Below are positions 35,572 to 44,157 of a stretch of DNA of 45,419 bases, piece after piece. Every line of letters starts with the position of its first letter. Position 1 is the first letter of the stretch. Made by a program: the position numbers and the translations under genes. The notes beneath the pieces are model-generated. The model had not been told where the DNA came from and made no database searches. It saw only the letters and a list, made by a program, of their open reading frames with translations. The DNA is from Alphaproteobacteria bacterium (lineage in GTDB: Bacteria > Pseudomonadota > Alphaproteobacteria > Rickettsiales > UBA998), in contig JAKFYP010000056.1 in NCBI GenBank assembly GCA_021730835.1, positions 1 through 45,419 of the forward strand, written 5' to 3'.

Positions 35572-35586
35572 TGTATTACCGTTTTA

Positions 35587-35715
35587 ATAGTCATTTCACT
35601 TAATAATTTCCTGTAAAGTCGGAATGACTATGGCTTGCGACCGCAAGCTCGCCGCTTATGCGGCGTAACCTACTTTATTTTTTCTTATGAAGAAAAAATA
35701 AAGTGGAAAGACAAT
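35587..35715 (+). repeat. nested-hairpin intergenic repeat, full-length (copy C)
   Basis: It is near-identical to the reverse complement of 5204..5331. Its modules are atagtcatttcac...gtcggaatgactat, ggcttgcgaccgcaagc, gccgcttatgcggc and ctttattttttcttatgaagaaaaaataaag. Confidence 0.85.
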
Positions 35716-35847
35716 AAGAACGCATCCTGACTATCCCGTAGCATTTTCAGGAAAAATGTAAAAGATTCACGCCATGGCTGCAACGGGGCGGGTTAAATCT
35801 GACGTATCCGGGTTTATTTTAGCGCAGAAATGTTAAAAATGTGTCCG

Positions 35848-36891
35848 TCAGGGAAAAACCGGCACATGCCGGAGGCCGGTTGTCTCGTCAAAACCGAACA
35901 TCAGATTCATATTTTGAACGGCCTGCCCGGAAGCGCCTTTAACCAGATTATCAATTGCGCTGACGAGGATAGCATCTTCCGGCCTGCGTCCGGCGAACAG
36001 GTTGATACGGCAGGTATTTGTGCCGGTCACATGCTGTGTTTGAGGATACGCACCCTCGGGCAGGATGGTCACGAACGGCTCGGCCCGGTAAGCCCGCTCA
36101 AGGTAAGCCCGTGCCTGTTGCAGCGTATAGCCGTTCAGGCGGACATAGATGGTTGCCAGCATGCCGCGCTTCATCGGCACGAGATGCGGAGTAAAGTGCA
36201 CCTCGACGGGCCGTTCCGCTGCCCAGGAAAGCACCTGCTCGATTTCGGGCCGGTGACGATGCTGGCCGACGCCGTAAGCGCTGAAGCCGCCCTCAATCTC
36301 GCAAAATAACAGGTTGCGCTTCATGCTCCGCCCCGCTCCGGTGACGCCGGACTTGGCGTCAATAATGATCGGATCCGGACAGATCATGCCCTCCTGCAGA
36401 AGCGGCAGGAGTGGCAACAGGGAGACAGTCGGGTAGCAGCCGGGATTGGCGACCAGCCGGGCGGAAGCGATTGCCTCACGGACATACTCGCTCAGGCCAT
36501 AGACGGCGCTTCTCTGAAGCTGTGGAGCGCGGTGTTCATGGCCGTACCATTCGGCGTAAAGCGCCGGATTAAACAGCCGGAAATCAGCCGAGAGATCAAC
36601 GATGCGCACATGGCCGGGCAGGGCGGCGATGATTTCCTGCGTCGTGCCGTGAGGCAGGCAGCAGAATACGAGTTGCACCCCGTTGAAATCCACCTCCTCG
36701 ATTTTCACCAGCGGCGGCAGAGCGAGACCGTGCAGATGCGGAAAACTCTCCTCTATGGGCTGTCCGGCCTGAGAATCGGCGGTCAGGGCAGCGATTTTTA
36801 CATACGGATGATGATGCAGCAGGCGCAGCAATTCCGCACCGGTATAACCGCTCGCGCCGAGAATGACAGTTGGGATGGGAGTGGGGGTCAT
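35848..36891 (-). CDS. argC: N-acetyl-gamma-glutamyl-phosphate reductase
   Basis: It has the N-terminal ILGASGYTGAELLRLL and the active-site motif NPGCYPT. 347 aa. Confidence 0.93.
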   Translation of the reverse strand: MTPTPIPTVILGASGYTGAELLRLLHHHPYVKIAALTADSQAGQPIEESFPHLHGLALPPLVKIEEVDFNGVQLVFCCLPHGTTQEIIAALPGHVRIVDLSADFRLFNPALYAEWYGHEHRAPQLQRSAVYGLSEYVREAIASARLVANPGCYPTVSLLPLLPLLQEGMICPDPIIIDAKSGVTGAGRSMKRNLLFCEIEGGFSAYGVGQHRHRPEIEQVLSWAAERPVEVHFTPHLVPMKRGMLATIYVRLNGYTLQQARAYLERAYRAEPFVTILPEGAYPQTQHVTGTNTCRINLFAGRRPEDAILVSAIDNLVKGASGQAVQNMNLMFGFDETTGLRHVPVFP

Positions 36892-36898
36892 ATTATGA

Positions 36899-37321
36899 TT
36901 ACTTTTCCCTTAAAGCAGTAATAACCGTACCAATAAGAACAACCATAAATAATATAAAGGCTGTTGTCAGGGTGGTATAATAACCCGCGCCTGATAATAA
37001 GAAATCAGGTATAACCCCGAACCAGATCACTAAAATCAACAGACCAAGCAAGGAAAGCAAGGGAATGGTATACGCGCTATAAAAAAGAAGATGTCTCGGC
37101 CTTGCGTGCCATTTTGCTTTTCTTATAAATGCTTCAGCAATTTCTTTTGCTTCCTGATCAAGAGTTCCTGAAGCGATCATCAAGGCAATAAAATCATTTA
37201 TATTTTTCTGAGATGGTTCTTTTCCTGAGTTAGCCTTTTTATATTGTTCCTTAAACTCCGCGATTCTCCTTTCATGCAAAAGGGTAATAATGTACGGCCT
37301 CAACTCCTCTGCCAGCGACAT
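36899..37321 (-). CDS. small membrane protein: soluble helical N-domain plus two C-terminal TM helices (hypothetical)
   Basis: 140 aa. Residues 1-80 are charged and helical, followed by LLFYSAYTIPLLSLLGLLILVIWFGVI and YYTTLTTAFILFMVVLIGTVITAL. The region is low in G+C. The ATG lies 1 nt after the stop of the upstream Dcd-like ORF. Confidence 0.6.
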   Translation of the reverse strand: MSLAEELRPYIITLLHERRIAEFKEQYKKANSGKEPSQKNINDFIALMIASGTLDQEAKEIAEAFIRKAKWHARPRHLLFYSAYTIPLLSLLGLLILVIWFGVIPDFLLSGAGYYTTLTTAFILFMVVLIGTVITALREK

Positions 37322-37322
37322 T

Positions 37323-38045
37323 TTAAGTCAATCCGAGTAATTTTTTCTGTTCTTCGGAGAGATGATTGATAAAATCTCTGGATTTTTCAGTAATCCGCGT
37401 ATTTAAAAATTCTATAAGTTGATTCTTGGTCGTCCGGCTTCCGAACTTCTGAAAACACTCGATAAATTCTTTGTCTTCCGAAAGTCTGGAAAGAGTAATA
37501 TTTTTTTCCGCATGATATTTCGCTTCCGCTCGTTTGCTGTAATCTTTGAGTACGGCTTTTGCTTCCGACAGCACGAGTTGGCAGATTCGCATACCGGGAA
37601 TCAGATGAAAGGAAAAACTTCCGACATTATGAATGGCAATCGGTAGCTTTCCTTCATAACCCGGATTGATATAGCTCGAAAGCCCGACATTGACACCTAA
37701 TCGAATAACGCTGTTGCGATTTTGTATATTGCCCACCAGCTTTTCCGATAGGCTCAAAGTTTCTTTAATCTGCCCCAGAATGAATTCTCCGGGTTGCAAT
37801 ATATAGCCATCGTTTCCCAGGTGCGCGTGGGTAAAATATTCTTTCAATTGCGTCGAATCAGGATAGGGCGCATTGATCTCCATATTTTTCTTAGGAATCT
37901 CAATTTGCTCATCCAACGTCAAATCTACAGAAGACGGTTGGATATTCTCAACCTGGAAAGGGGAAATATGTAATTCTTTTTGATAGATTCTCTCTAGAAT
38001 CTTCATATCCGAGAGCACACTCATAACTACCCCAAGAAATAACAT
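37323..38045 (-). CDS. dCTP deaminase/dUTPase-fold protein with a C-terminal extension (divergent, possibly non-catalytic)
   Basis: It aligns by eye with E. coli Dcd across the fold: LSDMKILERI, SSVDLTL, ILQPGEFILGQIKETLSL, NRNSVIRLGV, INPGYEGKLPIAIHN, IPGMRICQLVL and EAKYHAEK. An extra tail of about 55 aa follows. The Met at 38024 (MSVLSDMKIL), preceded by tggggtag, is the more likely start. Confidence 0.7.
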   Translation of the reverse strand: MLFLGVVMSVLSDMKILERIYQKELHISPFQVENIQPSSVDLTLDEQIEIPKKNMEINAPYPDSTQLKEYFTHAHLGNDGYILQPGEFILGQIKETLSLSEKLVGNIQNRNSVIRLGVNVGLSSYINPGYEGKLPIAIHNVGSFSFHLIPGMRICQLVLSEAKAVLKDYSKRAEAKYHAEKNITLSRLSEDKEFIECFQKFGSRTTKNQLIEFLNTRITEKSRDFINHLSEEQKKLLGLT

Positions 38046-38155
38046 CTGGCAGATTTAGTCTTACAGACTACTATATATAGCGTCTATAAGAAAAATATTT
38101 TCATAAAATACGAAAACACGAATTTCTTCGGTACGCATCTTATTTATTACGTTAT

Positions 38156-39604
38156 CTAAAACTGGAAATACAAAAACGGTGAGAAGGACTGAGCAATCAT
38201 TTTACTGACGCCGACCGCCATCACGGCCACCACGGCGCATTGTCCGGCCACCGAGACGCGATACGCCCAGGTCGGCCCGAGATGCCCGGCCTGCACATTG
38301 AAATGCCGCATGCGCCAAGGAGCAAGAAACACAATGACCCAGCCACCCGCCAGTGCTGCCAGATGCAGCGGCGTAATCTGCCAGACCAGCGTATCGGCGA
38401 TACCGAAACCGTTAAGCCCGAGCATGCCTTCGTAGAAGCCAAACGCGGTGCTGACATTGGGAGCGCGAAACAACACCCAGCCGATCATCACCATCAGCAG
38501 GGTCAGCGGCAAGGCCAGCAGGCGCGGATAAGGCGCGCCGCCCCTGCCGCCGATGAGGCGCTCCAACGCCAGAATCGCCCCGTGCCAGGTTCCCCAGAGC
38601 ACGAATGTCCAGTTCGCACCGTGCCACGCGCCGCCTAGAATCATGGTCAGCAGCAGGTTGATATAGGTGCGTACTTTGCCCTTTTTATTGCCGCCGAGGG
38701 GAATATAGAGATAATCGCGCAGCCAGGTCGAAAGCGAGATATGCCAGCGCCGCCAGAATTCGGTGATTGAGCGGCTAATATAGGGATGGTTGAAGTTCTC
38801 AATGAAGCGGAAACCCATCATCAGCCCGAGTCCGATCGCCATATCGGAATAGCCGGAGAAATCGAAATAAAGCTGGATGCTGTAGGCGAGAATGCCTAGC
38901 CACGCTTCGGAGAAGGAAGGGTTTGCCTGTGCAAACATCATATCAGCGATGGGCGCGACCGTATCGGCGATCATGACTTTTTTACAGAAGCCGACGGAAA
39001 AGCGAATCGCCCCCTCGTTGAATTTATCCAGCGTATGCGTGCGCTCATAGAACTGGTGGGCGACATCCTTATAGCGCAATACCGGCCCGGCGATGAGCTG
39101 AGGAAACAGGGCGATAAAGGCGGCGAAATCAAGAAAACTCGGGGCAATCTCGGCATCGCCGCGATAGACATCAATGACGTAGCTGACCGACTGGAAAACA
39201 TAAAAGGAAATCCCGATCGGCAGGATGACCTTCCATGCTTCCATCGGGGTGAACCCGGCGGCCAATAGCGCGGCATTGAATGAGTCCACGCCGAAATTGA
39301 AATATTTGAAATAGCCCAGCACCAGCAAATTCCCGGCAACGCCAATCGCCAGCCAGCGCTTGCGGTGACGGATTATTTGTTCTTCGGGTGTTTCTGCGGG
39401 CAGGCGACTCATGCGCAGTGTCACCCAGTAGCTGAAATATGTTACGGCGGCAAATAAAGCGAGGAAATCCACCCGCCACCAGCCGTAGAAAATATAGCTG
39501 CCAATGAGGATCACCAGCGATTTGCGTTTAAACGGCACGAGGTAATAGACCACCAGAAACAGCGGCAGAAACAGGAGCAGGAATACGGCGGAGGAGAAAA
39601 CCAT
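38156..39604 (-). CDS. algI: MBOAT-family polysaccharide O-acetyltransferase (AlgI-like)
   Basis: It is multi-TM and has the MBOAT signature FWRRWHISLSTWLRDYLYIPLGG. 482 aa. Confidence 0.88.
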   Translation of the reverse strand: MVFSSAVFLLLFLPLFLVVYYLVPFKRKSLVILIGSYIFYGWWRVDFLALFAAVTYFSYWVTLRMSRLPAETPEEQIIRHRKRWLAIGVAGNLLVLGYFKYFNFGVDSFNAALLAAGFTPMEAWKVILPIGISFYVFQSVSYVIDVYRGDAEIAPSFLDFAAFIALFPQLIAGPVLRYKDVAHQFYERTHTLDKFNEGAIRFSVGFCKKVMIADTVAPIADMMFAQANPSFSEAWLGILAYSIQLYFDFSGYSDMAIGLGLMMGFRFIENFNHPYISRSITEFWRRWHISLSTWLRDYLYIPLGGNKKGKVRTYINLLLTMILGGAWHGANWTFVLWGTWHGAILALERLIGGRGGAPYPRLLALPLTLLMVMIGWVLFRAPNVSTAFGFYEGMLGLNGFGIADTLVWQITPLHLAALAGGWVIVFLAPWRMRHFNVQAGHLGPTWAYRVSVAGQCAVVAVMAVGVSKMIAQSFSPFLYFQF

Positions 39605-39618
39605 GTGTTTAACTTTTG

Positions 39619-40839
39619 TTATTTATTTTCTTTTGCCGAAACCCTGTGCTCGCGGGCGGCGACGCTGCCGGTCGCAGGTGTGCAGGTTGCTGCTTGTGTT
39701 TTCTGACCGGAGGGGGCCGGAACCTCGATCTTCACATCCGCGTAGGTTTTCTGGATGAAGCGCTCAGGCATCTCCCAGATGACAAAACGCGGCGCGGTTT
39801 GTCCAAAATCGGTGTTCTTCAAAAAAGATTGCATTGGCTCAAGCGGGCCTTTGCCTTCCTCGGCAAGGTTGAGCACGTCGGTATGAAGCGCCTGTTTGAG
39901 CGCGCCCTCGAAATTCCACTCTTTCTCGAAACTGTAGGATGTGCCGACCAGCGCTACCGGGATCTGTTGCTCGCCGAACAAATCGCCGCCCGCTGCATCA
40001 CTATCCGCTTTGGCCGTCTTTATCTTCATATATGTCTCGGAACGCGGGCCGATGACCTCTTTCAGCGCACCGGTTGGGATAAAGGCGCTTAAATCGCCAT
40101 CGTAAACCTTCTTTTTGCCGCGGATGGTCTTATATTCCGCCGTATCGTAATCCGGCGCGCCGCAGGCCTGCGCTATTTCCGCAGCGATAGCCTGTGCGGC
40201 AATCTCTGCGCCTTCCGGCGACCAGTGCGTGTCGGTGCGCATGAAAACCTGTATGCCCTGTTTCTTCGCCTGCGCCAGCGGCTCCAGCAGGTCGGGCGCA
40301 AGAATGCCGCGCTTTTTCAGCCCTGTGTGAAACCGCCGGTAGCCTTCCTGCTTTTCCTGCGGGAAAGGAATATCGCCCAGCGCATCGGCATAAATACGCG
40401 TTTTGGCGGGTACAACGGCGACGACCAGCGTGATTCCCCGGCTTTTGAGAAAATCATGAATGCGCGCTACCAGATCGAGGCGCGCCTGCTCTTCCTTCAT
40501 TCCGTCTGGATAATGCTCGAATTCCTCGCGGGTAAACAGCCACTCATCCCGGCCCACAATCACCCCGTCATTGCCGACGCCAAACAGCGCGTAACGCAAG
40601 ATGCCCCAACTGGCCGTGGCCAGTTTTTTACCGTGCAGTCTGTCCTCGAATTTATCTTCAAGCGCCGCCGCCGCTTTACCGCGCAGAAAATCCGGAGCCG
40701 TTACCTCCCCGATTTCAAAAACCTTTTCCCGCTCCATCCATAAGGTAGAAAGCGCCGCGAATGCTGATACGGCAAAGAATGCCAGTATGGCTATCGCGCT
40801 GACGGGGATCAGGCGCGGCTCTTTCGTTTCACGCTCCAT
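39619..40839 (-). CDS. AlgJ/AlgX-like SGNH-type O-acetyltransferase, membrane-anchored
   Basis: It has an N-terminal TM anchor (IPVSAIAILAFFAVSAFAAL) and the motif RTDTHWSPEGA, which resembles the Asp-x-His catalytic pair of AlgJ/AlgX. It lies next to algI. Confidence 0.7.
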   Translation of the reverse strand: MERETKEPRLIPVSAIAILAFFAVSAFAALSTLWMEREKVFEIGEVTAPDFLRGKAAAALEDKFEDRLHGKKLATASWGILRYALFGVGNDGVIVGRDEWLFTREEFEHYPDGMKEEQARLDLVARIHDFLKSRGITLVVAVVPAKTRIYADALGDIPFPQEKQEGYRRFHTGLKKRGILAPDLLEPLAQAKKQGIQVFMRTDTHWSPEGAEIAAQAIAAEIAQACGAPDYDTAEYKTIRGKKKVYDGDLSAFIPTGALKEVIGPRSETYMKIKTAKADSDAAGGDLFGEQQIPVALVGTSYSFEKEWNFEGALKQALHTDVLNLAEEGKGPLEPMQSFLKNTDFGQTAPRFVIWEMPERFIQKTYADVKIEVPAPSGQKTQAATCTPATGSVAAREHRVSAKENK

Positions 40840-43045
40840 GACCTGCTACCTTTGTTTCCATTTCGATTCTTGCCAGCGGGTGTTTCTCCGCCGCCGCTTT
40901 TTCCAGTAACCGCCCGGCCAGCGCCGCATCACGGGGTACGCCCTCGCCGCGCTGATAGGCTTTGGCCAGCCAGTAGATGGCGTCACGATGGCCCTTATCC
41001 GCCGCTCTCTTGAGCCAGAGGATGCCTTTGCCCGCGTCGCGGTAGCCATCCGGGCCGTGTAGATAAATCAATGCCAGATCAACCATCGCTTCCGGATATT
41101 GTTTCTCGGCGGCGCGGGCGATGTAATCGCGGCCTTTGGCCGTATTGCGCGGCACGCCAATCCCATTGAGATAGGCCGCGCCAAGCTCATGCCAGGCTTG
41201 CGGGATATCGGCGCGGGCCGCCTCAGTGAAATAATGCACGGCGCGGCGAGAACTCATCGGCACACCCCTGCCTCCGGCATAGGATAGCCCCAACTCAAGC
41301 TGCACTTCGGGAATACCCGCCGCTTCGGCTTCGTGAAACAGCCGGATGGCGTCTGCCTGCGTATAACCTTCGACCACATCCCACAGGGCGATGCGGGCCA
41401 GTTCGACCTTGGCTTTGGTTTCTCCCAGCTTAATGGCTTTCTCCAGCCATTCGACTGATCTGGCAATGTTGCGCTCAACGCCCGTGCCGGTACGGTATGC
41501 ATTGGCGACTTGCATCATGGCGCGCCCGTCGGAGGGAGAAATGTTTTTCAGGGCGCGATGCACATATAAACTGCCAAGCATGGTATCCTGAATCGTGCCA
41601 CGGCCTTCGGTCAAGGCGCTGGCAACCCTGAGCATCGCCGAAACATTGCCCCGGTTAGCCGCCTTGCGATTCCAGTAAAACGAGGTTTTGGGATCGTCCG
41701 CGTCGTCGTAATACCCGGCGAGGTAATGCACGGCCTTGGTATTGCCCTCTTCACCCGCCTGTGTCATCCATTTCAGTCCCTCCTGCCGATCATAGAAATG
41801 GCTGGAAGGCGTCACCATGATGCGGGCGATACGCCATTTATCGGATGCCGAAATCGCCGATTCTTTTGCTTTGTTGAAGTACAGGGCGGCTTTCGCCTCG
41901 TCGCGGATGATCAGTCTGCCTTCGTCAAACAGCGAAGACAAGGTAAGTGCGGAGGTGACATCGCCGTTATTGGCCAGTGGTTCCAGATAAGCTACCGCCT
42001 GCGCCGAATTACCTGTTTCGAGCGCCCGGAATGCCAGAGAACGCGTCGCTTCGCCGCTACCGACCGCCGCAGCACGCCGTAGCCATTGATCCGCCTCTTC
42101 CTTCGGTACATCGAGATAGGCGCGCTTATTATTGCTCCGGCTGCTGCCCATCGCCTCGGCGGCGGCAACCGAACCCTGCTCGGCGGCGCGGCGCATGTAA
42201 TCGGTTGCTTTCTTGCGATCAACCGCCACGGTGATGCCTCGCCCATACATATCGGAGAGCGTCATCAGCGCGCCGATATGGTTATTCTTCATGGCCTCCT
42301 CAAACCAGATGAGCGCCCGTGCCTGATCCGCAGCCACGCCTTCCCCGTCAGCGAAAGCCTGTGCCAGGCGATAAGCGGCGTCACCTTCGCCTTTTTTCGC
42401 CGCTTCCTCAAGATAGGAAACACCGAGAATCGCCATATCCTGTGCCGCCGTGCGGGAGGGAGCCGGAACAAGCCCCTGCCGGTAAAGCCTTGCCAGCGCC
42501 AGCGCCGCCTTGCCGTAACGCCGCTGGATGGCCAGACGGTATTGCTCCGCCGCCGCCTTCATGTTGGATCCCAGATTGCCCGCGCCGGTTTCAAGCAGTT
42601 GCCCGTACTCATAGGCCGCCACCTTATCTCCGGCGGCGATGGCCTGTTTCAGCAGGATTTCGGCCCGCCGCCCGTCGGCGCGCACGCCTCTGCCGTCCAT
42701 ATAGAGGCTGGCGAGGCTGCGCTGGGCGCGGGTCGTCCATTCGTCGCTGATGCCTTCATCTTTTACCAGCCGAAGCGCTTTGGTGTAATATTCCGCTGCG
42801 GTGGCGTAATCGGCGCGGGGCAGCAGATGCACTGTCGGCAGATGCTCGTAAAGTTTTCCCAGCCGTACCATGGCTTCCGGCAGGCCGGTCTCCTCCATCT
42901 GGGAGGCAAGTTGCCGGAATTCCGCCTGCTTTCCCTGTTTTGCCAGCTCTTCAAGCCGGACGATATCGGCTTGCAGGTTGCGAGCGGATACACCGAAGGG
43001 TAGCAGCATCAGCAAAGCGCATAGAATATATCGCATCATTTTCAT
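40829..43045 (-). CDS. Sel1-like repeat (SLR/TPR) protein with a signal peptide; AlgK-like position
   Basis: It has more than 12 Sel1-type repeats (e.g. LGAAYLNGIGVPRNTAKGRDYIARAAEKQYPEA and WLAKAYQRGEGVPRDAALAGRLLEKAA). The start at 43045 gives MKMMRYILCALLMLLPFGVSA, forms an ATGA overlap with the algL stop, and follows a GGAGGA site. The ORF opens at 43066. Confidence 0.8.
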   Translation of the reverse strand: MKMMRYILCALLMLLPFGVSARNLQADIVRLEELAKQGKQAEFRQLASQMEETGLPEAMVRLGKLYEHLPTVHLLPRADYATAAEYYTKALRLVKDEGISDEWTTRAQRSLASLYMDGRGVRADGRRAEILLKQAIAAGDKVAAYEYGQLLETGAGNLGSNMKAAAEQYRLAIQRRYGKAALALARLYRQGLVPAPSRTAAQDMAILGVSYLEEAAKKGEGDAAYRLAQAFADGEGVAADQARALIWFEEAMKNNHIGALMTLSDMYGRGITVAVDRKKATDYMRRAAEQGSVAAAEAMGSSRSNNKRAYLDVPKEEADQWLRRAAAVGSGEATRSLAFRALETGNSAQAVAYLEPLANNGDVTSALTLSSLFDEGRLIIRDEAKAALYFNKAKESAISASDKWRIARIMVTPSSHFYDRQEGLKWMTQAGEEGNTKAVHYLAGYYDDADDPKTSFYWNRKAANRGNVSAMLRVASALTEGRGTIQDTMLGSLYVHRALKNISPSDGRAMMQVANAYRTGTGVERNIARSVEWLEKAIKLGETKAKVELARIALWDVVEGYTQADAIRLFHEAEAAGIPEVQLELGLSYAGGRGVPMSSRRAVHYFTEAARADIPQAWHELGAAYLNGIGVPRNTAKGRDYIARAAEKQYPEAMVDLALIYLHGPDGYRDAGKGILWLKRAADKGHRDAIYWLAKAYQRGEGVPRDAALAGRLLEKAAAEKHPLARIEMETKVAGHGA

Positions 43046-44157
43046 GCTTTTCCTCCCGGTTTCCACCAGAAGCAGGTGGCGTTCCCGCCTGAGAATTCGT
43101 CAATCAACGGACGTTCTTTGAATCCCCGGTTGTCCATCAGTTGCCGCAGCCGCGCCGCTGCGAAGGATTCGGGGTGGTAGCGCAAATAGGCTTCCGTAAA
43201 TGCCATGTAATGACGCTGGTGGCTCCGCCGATCAAGCATGCCATGCTCCTGCACGAGATAGTTATCACTCGGCCCCGGTATGTAGTTGGCCGATGCTTCA
43301 GGCAGGATCACCAGTGGGTTATAGACGGCGCTCAGGAAGTAATCCATGATAGTGTCAATTGACTTGCCGTCTTCGTGTTCGCCATAGAGGTCGTCGCCGT
43401 GCAGGCGGGCGATTTCCGCCATGACAGTCAGGCTGGAGAGCGACTGGCGCATATACCAGGTCGCCCGCGCCCCGCGCCTTGTCTCCAGTGGCAGGCCGCC
43501 ATCCGGGTTTGCTTGCTCCAGCGCTTCCTGAAAACGTTCAATTCCTTTTCTGTACAGGGCATCGTCAGCGCTGTACTGCCCCCATGCCATCAGGACGGAA
43601 TCCGCGAGGTAACGGTGATTGTTATGGTCCACATCGCCGTCAAAGGTAGCGTTCATGCGACGCGATAAGCCATCAAGCCAGTCATGCACGATTTTACTGT
43701 CAGCCGGATTCATGTTATGCCCGACGACGCTGTAGGCGGCGATGGTCGGCAGCAGCAGGCGTTTGAGCGCATAATAAGGATCGTAGTCTTCTTTTGACCT
43801 GACAAAAGCCTTCGCCTTTGCCCAGCTGATCAGTAGCGAAGAAAGATCCCGCTCGGAAGCAGCATCGCCCGCCAGTGCCCTTCCCGAGAGCACCATCATC
43901 GCCCATGAAAAATCGGTGGCGCTCTGATCGGTTCCGTATTCTTTGGTTTTCTTCAACTCAGGGATCGGAGTGGCAAGCTTCTTAATGTTGATTTTATACG
44001 CCTCCGCCATGCAGGCTTTGCGGGCAGGGGCGAAAGCCGGATGCTGCAACTCGGCCCGCCGCGCTGCTACGTCGAATATCGCCGATGGCTCCACTGCGGC
44101 AACGGCAAGCGGACACAGTAAAAGCAGCATGGCTATCGGGTATAACAGACGAGTCAT
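43042..44157 (-). CDS. algL: alginate lyase family protein (PL5, AlgL-like)
   Basis: It has a signal peptide (MTRLLYPIAMLLLLCPLAVAA) and the motif VDHNNHRYL, corresponding to the AlgL NNHSYW catalytic motif. 371 aa. Its start forms an ATGA overlap with the upstream gene. Confidence 0.75.
   Translation of the reverse strand: MTRLLYPIAMLLLLCPLAVAAVEPSAIFDVAARRAELQHPAFAPARKACMAEAYKINIKKLATPIPELKKTKEYGTDQSATDFSWAMMVLSGRALAGDAASERDLSSLLISWAKAKAFVRSKEDYDPYYALKRLLLPTIAAYSVVGHNMNPADSKIVHDWLDGLSRRMNATFDGDVDHNNHRYLADSVLMAWGQYSADDALYRKGIERFQEALEQANPDGGLPLETRRGARATWYMRQSLSSLTVMAEIARLHGDDLYGEHEDGKSIDTIMDYFLSAVYNPLVILPEASANYIPGPSDNYLVQEHGMLDRRSHQRHYMAFTEAYLRYHPESFAAARLRQLMDNRGFKERPLIDEFSGGNATCFWWKPGGKA

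Follow-up and report, generated by a model that had tools for sequence, protein, structure and literature searches.

A Dcd-fold protein with replaced catalytic residues and its membrane-protein partner: a candidate nucleotide-sensing cassette

What does a protein with the fold of dCTP deaminase (Dcd) do once the residues that define the enzyme have been replaced? This question is raised by an open reading frame (ORF) at 37323..38045 of contig JAKFYP010000056.1 (assembly GCA_021730835.1, an alphaproteobacterium of the Rickettsiales), a stretch of 45,419 nucleotides (nt) that is called the window here. The ORF encodes 240 amino acids (aa) as listed and was assigned to the Dcd fold on the basis of the ORF call, Pfam, TIGRFAM, phmmer and an AlphaFold model; like all features whose coordinates are given below with two dots, it lies on the minus strand. 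It is followed by a gene for a small membrane protein. A sequence-only reading of this DNA had proposed that the protein keeps a nucleotide-binding scaffold and has lost the canonical chemistry of both Dcd and trimeric dUTPase (Dut). The alignments, the structural model and family-wide conservation all bear this out, and the window protein very probably has neither canonical deaminase nor canonical dUTPase activity, to judge from its residues. The role that we favour, a mobile anti-phage module in which the disabled Dcd fold senses nucleotides and acts through a membrane effector, is put forward tentatively, with slightly less than an even chance of being right.

Fold and active site of the Dcd-like protein

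In the homologue alignment, the start shared by all homologues is the internal Met8 (M(S/G/A)(V/I)LSD), so the true start is probably the ATG at 38024 and the product a 233-aa protein beginning MSVLSD; residue numbers follow the 240-aa ORF throughout. The protein matched Pfam PF22769 'dCTP deaminase-like' (E=1.6e-32, residues 10-161) and the NCBIfam equivalog TIGR02274 'dCTP deaminase' (118 bits for a cut-off of 92.8, residues 10-187). Its score for the dUTPase family PF00692 fell below the gathering threshold (20.2 versus 22), and those for the Dut models TIGR00576 (25.4 versus 102.6) and NF002598, of the archaeal type (40 versus 130), stayed under their cut-offs. The nearest solved relatives by sequence were Dcd or Dcd-Dut chains from B. 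halodurans, M. tuberculosis and E. coli (E=1e-19 to 1e-12).

An AlphaFold model calculated with 28 family sequences as input reached a mean predicted local distance difference test score (pLDDT) of 86.7. Foldseek matched this model to the Dcd structures 1xs1, 2v9x, 4a6a and 4xjc, the E. coli and M. tuberculosis proteins among them, with template modelling (TM) scores of 0.85-0.90, normalised to the target, and root mean square deviations of 2.2-2.5 over about 190 aligned columns (188-192), at 28-29% identity to Dcd structures. A search of BFVD with the same model returned ordinary viral Dcd and Dut only. As modelled, the window protein is a Dcd/dUTPase jelly-roll beta-barrel with a C-terminal lid, and the core and lid take up residues 8-190 (37476..38024; PF22769, TIGR02274 and Foldseek). 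Directly behind the nucleotide lid follows a family-specific C-terminal extension of about 50 residues (192-240; 37326..37472), which is modelled as helices 192-201, 207-222 and 231-236 and ends in a conserved L(S/T)xE(Q/E)KxxLGL motif; canonical Dcd has no such extension. The Dcd fold assigned from sequence was recovered both by the profile matches to PF22769 and TIGR02274 and, at the level of the fold, by the comparison of the model with Dcd structures.

The catalytic positions were read from three alignments, namely a phmmer alignment to solved Dcd chains, a MAFFT alignment with E. coli Dcd, and an alignment of the family hidden Markov model (HMM) to E. coli Dcd and Dut. The register agreed across all three. 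In the phmmer alignment, NRNSVIRLG and YINPGYEGKLPIAIHN of the window protein stand opposite GRSSVGRLG and WVDPGFNGQITLELFN of Dcd. The earlier placement of Ala at catalytic Glu138, Asn at Asp128 and Asn at Ser111 of E. coli Dcd was reproduced each time: the residues are Ala137 (codon GCC, 37635..37637), Asn127 (codon AAT, 37665..37667), which also occupies the position of E. coli Dut Asp90 (PMC3905902), and Asn111. Three further positions are replaced, Gly109 by Asn109, His121 by Gly and Gln182 by Glu180. The alignments also agree that Arg115 and the flanking fold motifs are retained, as had been claimed, which leaves the catalytic-assist pair Ser111/Arg115 with its Arg and with Asn in place of Ser. 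Arg110, Ser112, Tyr169 (Dcd Tyr171) and Lys176 (Dcd Lys178) are kept as well, and Tyr130 preserves the aromatic character of Dcd Trp131. The codons of Asn109-Arg110-Asn111-Ser112 (Gly-Arg-Ser-Ser in Dcd), with the phosphate-binding Arg and Ser retained, lie at 37710..37721, and those of the lid motif Lys176-Tyr177-His-Ala-Glu180, in which the Lys is kept and the Gln182 position is taken by a family-conserved Glu, at 37506..37520. Of the residues that contact the triphosphate, Arg110, Ser112, Tyr169 and Lys176 are thus unchanged, and Gln182, which makes this contact in E. coli Dcd structures, is Glu180 here. The change at the catalytic Glu is the same as in the engineered E. coli variant E138A, which, according to the PDB titles, was crystallised with dCTP (1xs4) and with dTTP (2j4q).

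On the dUTPase side, the sequence-only reading had taken the second Asp of motif III (IDSDYxGE) to be catalytic and had found Gly there. When the family HMM was aligned to E. coli Dut, the family segment iNPGY paired with IDSDY, the first Asp facing Asn127 and the second facing Gly129. In the dUTPase of Mason-Pfizer monkey virus (M-PMV), Asp95 orients the attacking water, takes its proton and hydrogen-bonds the 3'-OH, and Tyr98, three residues further on, stacks on the deoxyribose (PMC3905902). Since the catalytic Asp precedes the stacking Tyr by three residues (I-D-x-x-Y; Asp90 in E. coli), it corresponds to the first Asp of IDSDY. The loss of the Dut catalytic Asp and the Gly at the second position both stand, but it is Asn127, not Gly129, that takes the catalytic place. 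A sequence comparison of E. coli Dut entries 1rnj and 1syl with the wild type gave D90N (LINSDY) as the only difference, and INPGY mirrors this change; we take these entries to be inactive-mutant complexes with imido-dUTP and dUTP. Moreover, the two residues of the bifunctional Dcd-Dut enzymes, the deaminase Glu and the motif III Asp, are both replaced in comparison with 2qxx, 4a6a (M. tuberculosis) and 4xjc. Since it proved to lack the catalytic residues that define them, the window protein stands outside Dcd, Dut and bifunctional Dcd-Dut in function, as far as its residues tell; by structure it belongs to the superfamily.

The remainder of the ligand site is well preserved. The residues that serve Mg, phosphate and deoxyribose binding, Asp41, Arg110, Ser112, Arg115, Tyr130, Arg153, Gln156, Tyr169 and Lys176, are all kept. 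In the alignment to E. coli Dut, Asp41 is the motif I Asp, Arg110 and Ser112 belong to motif II and Tyr130 is the motif III Tyr; Arg153 and Gln156, within GMRICQ, match GERIAQ of Dut motif IV, and Tyr169 and Lys176 form a lid of the Dcd type. With roles as for M-PMV dUTPase, the motif I Asp (here Asp41) contacts Mg-bound waters (PMC3905902), and the motif III Tyr stacks on the deoxyribose (PMC3905902, PMC12524310).

An acid from elsewhere in the sequence could in principle take over from Glu138. When such a substitute was sought in the family alignments, no family-specific conserved acidic residue was found in the beta-strand core. Canonical Dcd shares the invariant Asp41 and Glu95, which are hence also present in the E138A variant, and position 139 is variable. 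The sole family-specific carboxylate is Glu180, in the C-terminal lid. The sequences are therefore best read as a ligand site that is under selection while both chemistry residues give way to inert or non-basic side chains.

This state is shared by a whole family. A search of 5.8 billion proteins gave about 80 full-length relatives of 225-245 aa and 38-67% identity, the nearest of which (67%) comes from an unrelated metagenome contig, and an exhaustive profile search of 1.84 billion cluster representatives added about 20 more full-length clusters as well as sister clades. These roughly 100 homologues, from archaea and bacteria, have in common 25 invariant residues (among others Asp41, Arg110, Ser112, Asn127, Tyr130, Arg153 and Gln156) and the motif NR(N/S)S(L/V)IRLG ... 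(Y/F)INPGYxG(K/Q)LPI(A/V/I)IxN, followed by the helical C-terminal extension. The canonical signature G-R-S-S-R...D...E...Y-K-Q reads N-R-(N/S)-S-R...N...(A/V/I)...Y-K-E in the family. The Glu138 position is occupied by Val in 54, Ala in 25, Ile in 7 and other residues in 14 members; Asn is found at the Ser111 position in 68 of 100, and Gly, Ser or Ala at the His121 position. In a joint alignment of 235 sequences, the absence of Glu138 coincided with Asn at position 128 in 140 cases and Glu138 with Asp128 in 80, leaving 15 discordant sequences. The exchanges of Gln182 for Glu (113 of the 146 sequences without Glu138) and of Gly109 for Asn, together with the loss of His121, co-occur with the Glu138-less state. 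Since the same substitutions are conserved in about 100 homologues, the sequences indicate that the loss of the catalytic residues is a conserved state and neither chance nor decay.

The membrane-protein partner and a proposed mechanism

The second gene of the pair (36899..37321, 140 aa) starts 1 nt past the stop codon of the Dcd-like gene (TAAAATG). Its product begins with a soluble three-helix domain (residues 1-75, 37097..37321), which was delimited by alignment and AlphaFold (helices 3-30, 38-51 and 53-72, pLDDT about 78-94) and carries the motif RPYI...EY...Y...P(S)xxEINxFI. Two predicted transmembrane helices follow, the first at residues 86-104 (37010..37066; Kyte-Doolittle value 2.72 in a 19-residue window, helical in the model) and the second at residues 118-136 (36914..36970; 2.39). 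Basic residues flank the hairpin on both sides, and the sequence suggests an N-in/C-in topology.

A homologous partner gene of 140-160 aa lies directly downstream of the Dcd-like gene in nearly all family loci examined, often overlapping it by 4-8 nt. These partners matched that of the window with phmmer E values of 1e-27 to 1e-5, most of them with two hydrophobic segments, and they evolve fast, at 11-34% identity among homologues. A sequence search with the partner in the 5.8-billion-protein set returned only the partner itself, and a profile search returned 6 proteins; because the protein searches found so few, its distribution was read from the DNA downstream of Dcd-like matches. Those matches of the partner-side search that were checked sat, here too, right behind a Dcd-like gene. 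No Pfam, PADLOC or PHROG family scored above threshold for the partner, and a Foldseek search of its model against the PDB gave no match (best E = 1.9). A Pfam hit to DUF6404 (17.3 bits for a threshold of 27.6) was treated as not significant.

Variants of this arrangement exist in the wider clade. One sister family consists of proteins of about 208 aa (NRNS...INPGF...non-Glu) that lack the KYxxE lid motif and whose genes are overlapped by a two-transmembrane partner gene of 147-155 aa, as at L198:3413-4503, where the cassette adjoins QatB/QatC/QatD (confirmed by PADLOC), and at L034:958-2024, in an Enterobacterales metagenome-assembled genome; a search of 5,426 complete E. coli genomes yielded no copy. 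At L197:5285-6836, a Dcd-like protein of 282 aa (P0085; QRSS...LNPGY...LPCLISN, with Glu replaced by Leu and Asp by Asn) has a longer C-terminal domain and is overlapped by the gene of a GGDEF protein that ends in a zinc-ribbon-like CxxC...CxxC segment, and a small gene with a faint WYL match precedes it. This locus suggests outputs of the nucleotide-cyclase type as further partners of the dead Dcd module. A 190-aa relative, annotated 'dcd: dCTP deaminase', is encoded in the Mu-like prophage of Helicobacter trogontum ATCC 700114 (BK070156.1, L199:3959-4817); it bears the disabled signature (ANPGY, PIIIFN, KYQNE) and overlaps a gene for a 100-aa partner with a helical N-terminal domain and no transmembrane segment. 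Finally, two matches from the representative library (P0152 and P0173; 347 and 361 aa) have Asn at Asp128, Gln at Glu138 and C-terminal tails of about 180 residues, which by eye are low-complexity or coiled-coil-like and end in hydrophobic or amphipathic stretches; these may combine sensor and effector in a single chain.

In the module that we favour, the dead Dcd-like protein would bind a 2'-deoxynucleotide, most likely a pyrimidine deoxynucleoside triphosphate (dNTP), without converting it, and would be a receptor and not an enzyme, because the binding residues are kept and both chemistry residues are replaced. It would form a trimer, as do canonical Dcd and Dut; the active sites of this superfamily lie at the interfaces of the trimer subunits, and deoxyribose is selected there by the motif III Tyr. 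The occupancy of these inter-subunit sites, or the identity of the nucleotide in them, would order or release the C-terminal lid, and the helical extension behind the lid (residues 192-240) would pass this movement on to the cytoplasmic three-helix domain of the partner, a protein that is translated in coupling with the sensor and that the sensor would have to contact. The hairpins of the partner would then assemble or open in the membrane and perturb it, presumably with toxic effect. The trigger could be a dNTP pool altered by the phage or a modified dNTP specific to a phage, and the outcome would be abortive infection or the exclusion of the invading phage. We consider this specific lid-gating scheme rather unlikely to be correct in its particulars. 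There is precedent for its elements: the C-terminal motif of the dUTPase superfamily closes the site on substrate binding, and the binding of phage Dut to the repressor Stl is independent of catalysis and competed by dUTP (PMC12524310). A sensor or other non-canonical role, as the sequence-only reading had suggested, is consistent with the obligatory membrane partner and with the retention of the aligned residues that contact Mg, phosphate and deoxyribose, and it is retained here as a proposal.

A mobile cassette, its neighbourhoods and competing explanations

The two genes and the 110 nt upstream of them form a cassette of 1.25 kb (36899..38155), delimited by composition: GC content is 33-45% inside and 56-64% in the flanks (200-nt windows). 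As a whole, this island has 38-40% GC, and its neighbourhood about 58-64%. The AT-rich intergenic region upstream (38046..38155, about 34% GC) contains an imperfect palindrome at 38081-38112 and is the presumed promoter or operator of the cassette; a sigma-70 consensus scan of this region gave no match, and no convincing sigma-70 promoter or terminator was found. The neighbours are an MBOAT/AlgI-like gene (38156-39604) on one side and argC (35848-36891) on the other, both assigned by Pfam. The ATG of argC (36891) lies 7 nt past the stop codon of the partner gene, on the same strand. Flanking direct repeats or att-like sites were sought at the cassette and none were found. Its insertion is read from composition only, because the empty-site comparison found no close relative: the closest ArgC relatives in metagenomes were at most 65% identical, and none had an AlgI-like gene or a cassette nearby. 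The two-gene cassette is almost certainly mobile, and the non-housekeeping function proposed for it from sequence has become well supported by the low-GC island, the patchy spread over archaea and bacteria, and the prophage, integrase, restriction-modification (R-M), toxin-antitoxin (TA) and Qat genes near relatives.

Hosts of the family are indeed sporadic and include Methanothrix, Minisyncoccia, Leptospirales, Bacillota, Halanaerobiales, Ca. Loosdrechtia, Desulfovibrionaceae, Synergistaceae, Spirochaetia and Lachnospiraceae. Searches of the phages, plasmids and E. coli genomes in cultured-organism collections returned only canonical Dcd and Dut at no more than 35% identity, the exception being the H. 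trogontum prophage relative. In prophages with a CI/S24-type repressor, the cassette occupies the junction between endolysin and integrase (loci L104 and L110-L113). A viral contig (L090) has it flanked by a late regulator on one side and by the genes for the small and large terminase subunits and portal on the other. Elsewhere it adjoins two tyrosine integrases and AlpA (L101) or a Type I/IIG R-M pair with a DarA/LPD1 giant protein (L105), and at L114 the island around it holds four genes of the HicAB type, Fic and an R-M system of the XcyI type. Among 123 neighbouring ORFs from 16 further loci, the top Pfam family was the Eco57I-type R-M methylase, followed by HTH_3, N6_Mtase, MmeI_Mtase and HicB. 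A few genes upstream, some of the same prophages (L110:2943-4061, also L111-L113) carry a gene for an RVT_1 reverse transcriptase, which may belong to a diversity-generating retroelement.

Further observations concern the surroundings of the cassette in the window. No terminator-like site was found in the gap between the partner gene and argC (36884-36905), and argC may be co-transcribed with the inserted cassette, its ribosome-binding region lying inside the 3' end of the partner gene. The DNA upstream of the cassette (38156-43066) holds an alginate-type O-acetylation cluster (MBOAT/AlgI-like protein, AlgX-like SGNH protein and a 745-aa Sel1-repeat protein). Beyond argC, the segment 34897-35847 contains a gene for a DUF6901 protein (224 aa, E=1.6e-52) and then an AT-rich intergenic region (35572-35847) in which 200-nt windows go down to 36-42% GC; the 34-36 kb region as a whole, at about 49%, is under the window average and could be a second foreign segment. 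The source organism apparently belongs to a poorly sampled lineage, because its ArgC had no relative above 65% in the metagenome collection scanned.

Taken as such, a role of the cassette in conflict or defence is about as probable as its opposite, and several results weigh against the sensor-effector module proposed above. Neither the Dcd-like protein nor its partner has a match in PADLOC-DB v2. The window and several Methanothrix loci have metabolic neighbours only, and the association with defence genes is a qualitative one. A membrane effector is not universal in the wider clade, because some relatives have partners without transmembrane helices, as in the H. trogontum prophage, or of the GGDEF type. 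The geometry of the active site was read from alignments only. Moreover, the family-conserved exchange of Gln182 for Glu puts a carboxylate at a triphosphate-contact position of Dcd, which, taken from sequence, might point to another ligand or to some remaining chemistry of a different kind.

The same neighbourhoods could also be those of a cassette that serves itself or its phage, either as a TA-like pair of a membrane toxin and a nucleotide-responsive Dcd-like antidote or as a prophage device for lysis timing or superinfection exclusion that links membrane permeabilisation to the dNTP state. The placement in several prophages, where endolysin and small genes directly precede it and the integrase follows, the late regulator-terminase position in the viral contig, the company of HicAB and Fic and the adjoining integrases would all be expected of such an element, and small proteins with two transmembrane helices make typical holins or toxins. 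Many copies, including that of the window, however, have no phage or lysis genes nearby, and the lysis-integrase junction is also a classical slot for prophage defence, so that position does not discriminate between the two. A conserved cytoplasmic domain of 75 residues would be unusual for a holin. Since TA systems and abortive infection overlap mechanistically, this explanation, which we judge clearly unlikely, is in part a relabelling of the one we favour.

Alternatively, the protein could be an enzyme of altered chemistry, in which the conserved Asn111, Asn127 and Glu180, or a residue of the partner, support another nucleotide reaction, such as hydrolysis at a different phosphate or the conversion of a modified pyrimidine substrate; the partner would then be a membrane tether, and defence would work by depletion or modification of nucleotides. 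Nucleotide-depleting defence enzymes are an established class (dCTP deaminase and dGTPase systems). Few parts of the family are as well conserved as the active-site region, and its replacements are conserved too (Asn109, Asn127 and Tyr130, with Glu180 in 113 of the 146 sequences without Glu138), which fits a defined chemical environment; Asp41, which binds Mg, is also retained along with the phosphate residues. Yet both known mechanisms of the fold need the missing residues (PMC3905902), and Dcd E138A, crystallised with dCTP (1xs4), has every other acid shared with the family, so that a rescue of deamination is not expected. Position 137 holds Ala, Val, Ile, Thr or Met, all of them non-reactive, and a strict pairing with a membrane protein is atypical of soluble nucleotide depleters. 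We therefore hold altered chemistry to be quite improbable.

An ordinary housekeeping dCTP deaminase, whose odd residues are tolerated variants, would explain why TIGR02274 scores above its cut-off and why public sources name homologues 'dCTP deaminase'. These names are accounted for by the fact that TIGR02274 does not discriminate the disabled clade, which it scores above its cut-off, and the clade as a whole looks like a systematic misannotation. With the Glu138, Asp128 and Ser111 positions all replaced, a low-GC island, a membrane partner, a patchy distribution linked to mobile elements and a nearest homologue of only 67% identity, a housekeeping role is highly improbable. A decaying remnant of Dcd would be expected to lose its catalytic residues, but the chance of a pseudogene is negligible given a confident structure model, an intact ORF that abuts or overlaps the partner gene, and about 100 homologues of 38-67% identity, from archaea and bacteria, in which these substitutions recur together with 25 invariant residues.

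Relation to known systems

The sensor-effector module that we favour has elements in common with several known systems and is identical to none of those compared. With the homotrimeric Dcd (EC 3.5.4.13; E. coli 1xs1) the family shares the fold, the N-terminal SxDLxL, the Arg110/Ser112/Arg115 loop and the Tyr and Lys of the lid. It differs from it by the replacement of Glu138 by Ala, Val or Ile, Asp128 by Asn, Ser111 by Asn (about 70%), His121 by Gly, Ser or Ala, Gly109 by Asn and Gln182 by Glu, as well as by the helical extension of some 50 residues, the two-transmembrane partner gene and a context of mobile elements in place of a housekeeping locus. Dut (EC 3.6.1.23, PF00692) belongs to the same superfamily and has counterparts of the motif I Asp, the motif II Arg and Ser, the motif III Tyr and the motif IV Arg and Gln; in the window protein, in contrast, Asn stands in for the water-activating Asp, the sequence shows no glycine-rich motif V and the lid is of the Dcd type.

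Herpesvirus dUTPase-related proteins are examples of a dUTPase fold in non-catalytic or moonlighting roles. In the staphylococcal phage Dut/SaPI Stl system, a protein of the superfamily likewise acts as a nucleotide-dependent protein switch in phage-host conflict (PMC12524310). Phage Duts are active enzymes that act on a DNA-binding repressor, whereas this family has lost the catalytic residues throughout and is paired with a dedicated small membrane protein from its own operon. Its nearest counterparts in behaviour are the laboratory variants E138A and D90N and those phage dUTPases that moonlight.

The anti-phage 'dCTP deaminases' (Tal et al. 2022; AvcD of Vibrio cholerae) are associated with defence islands and act on the dCTP pool, and the database name that they have in common with the family is easily a source of confusion. 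They reportedly have a zinc-dependent cytidine/dCMP deaminase fold with an N-terminal kinase-like domain and are active depleters encoded by a single gene. The window protein is, in contrast, a Dcd/dUTPase beta-barrel, an unrelated fold, with its catalytic residues absent and no match in PADLOC. A likeness in architecture is found in the 2TM/4TM effectors of CBASS and Pycsar and in RexAB, which are abortive-infection modules of a sensor and a small transmembrane effector. The cassette has in common with them a compact operon, a cytoplasmic ligand-binding protein with a small membrane protein, carriage by prophages and defence islands, and a patchy distribution. It lacks a cyclase or other second-messenger synthase, the proposed input being the dNTP itself, and it has no homology to their components.

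The partner of the sister family and the GGDEF partner were also without a match in PADLOC, and PHROGs placed the Dcd-like protein only in its generic 'dCTP deaminase' family. No description of the clade or the cassette was found in PADLOC v2, PHROGs, Pfam or the literature searched, an absence that is no proof that they are undescribed.

In its most far-reaching form, the proposal would be that a catalytically dead Dcd reads the dNTP pool directly, as a substrate trap that responds to an imbalance of dUTP, dCTP and dTTP or to phage-modified pyrimidine dNTPs and whose lid gates a membrane effector. This would be the founding example of such a defence, with a portable input that is wired to GGDEF proteins, to soluble partners or to fused coiled-coil tails in other loci; taken as a whole, we regard this as possible, if somewhat unlikely. 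The family suggests that dead Dcd domains are reusable nucleotide-sensing inputs. If the favoured explanation is true, the proteins labelled 'dCTP deaminase' in this clade, which occurs in Methanothrix, in gut and wastewater lineages and in prophages, would not be metabolic enzymes but nucleotide receptors of mobile conflict systems, and the cassette would be a compact and widespread candidate for a two-gene anti-phage system new to current defence databases. The family would then offer a scaffold, a natural 'substrate trap', for studying ways in which bacteria and archaea might keep watch on their dNTP pools or on phage-modified nucleotides.

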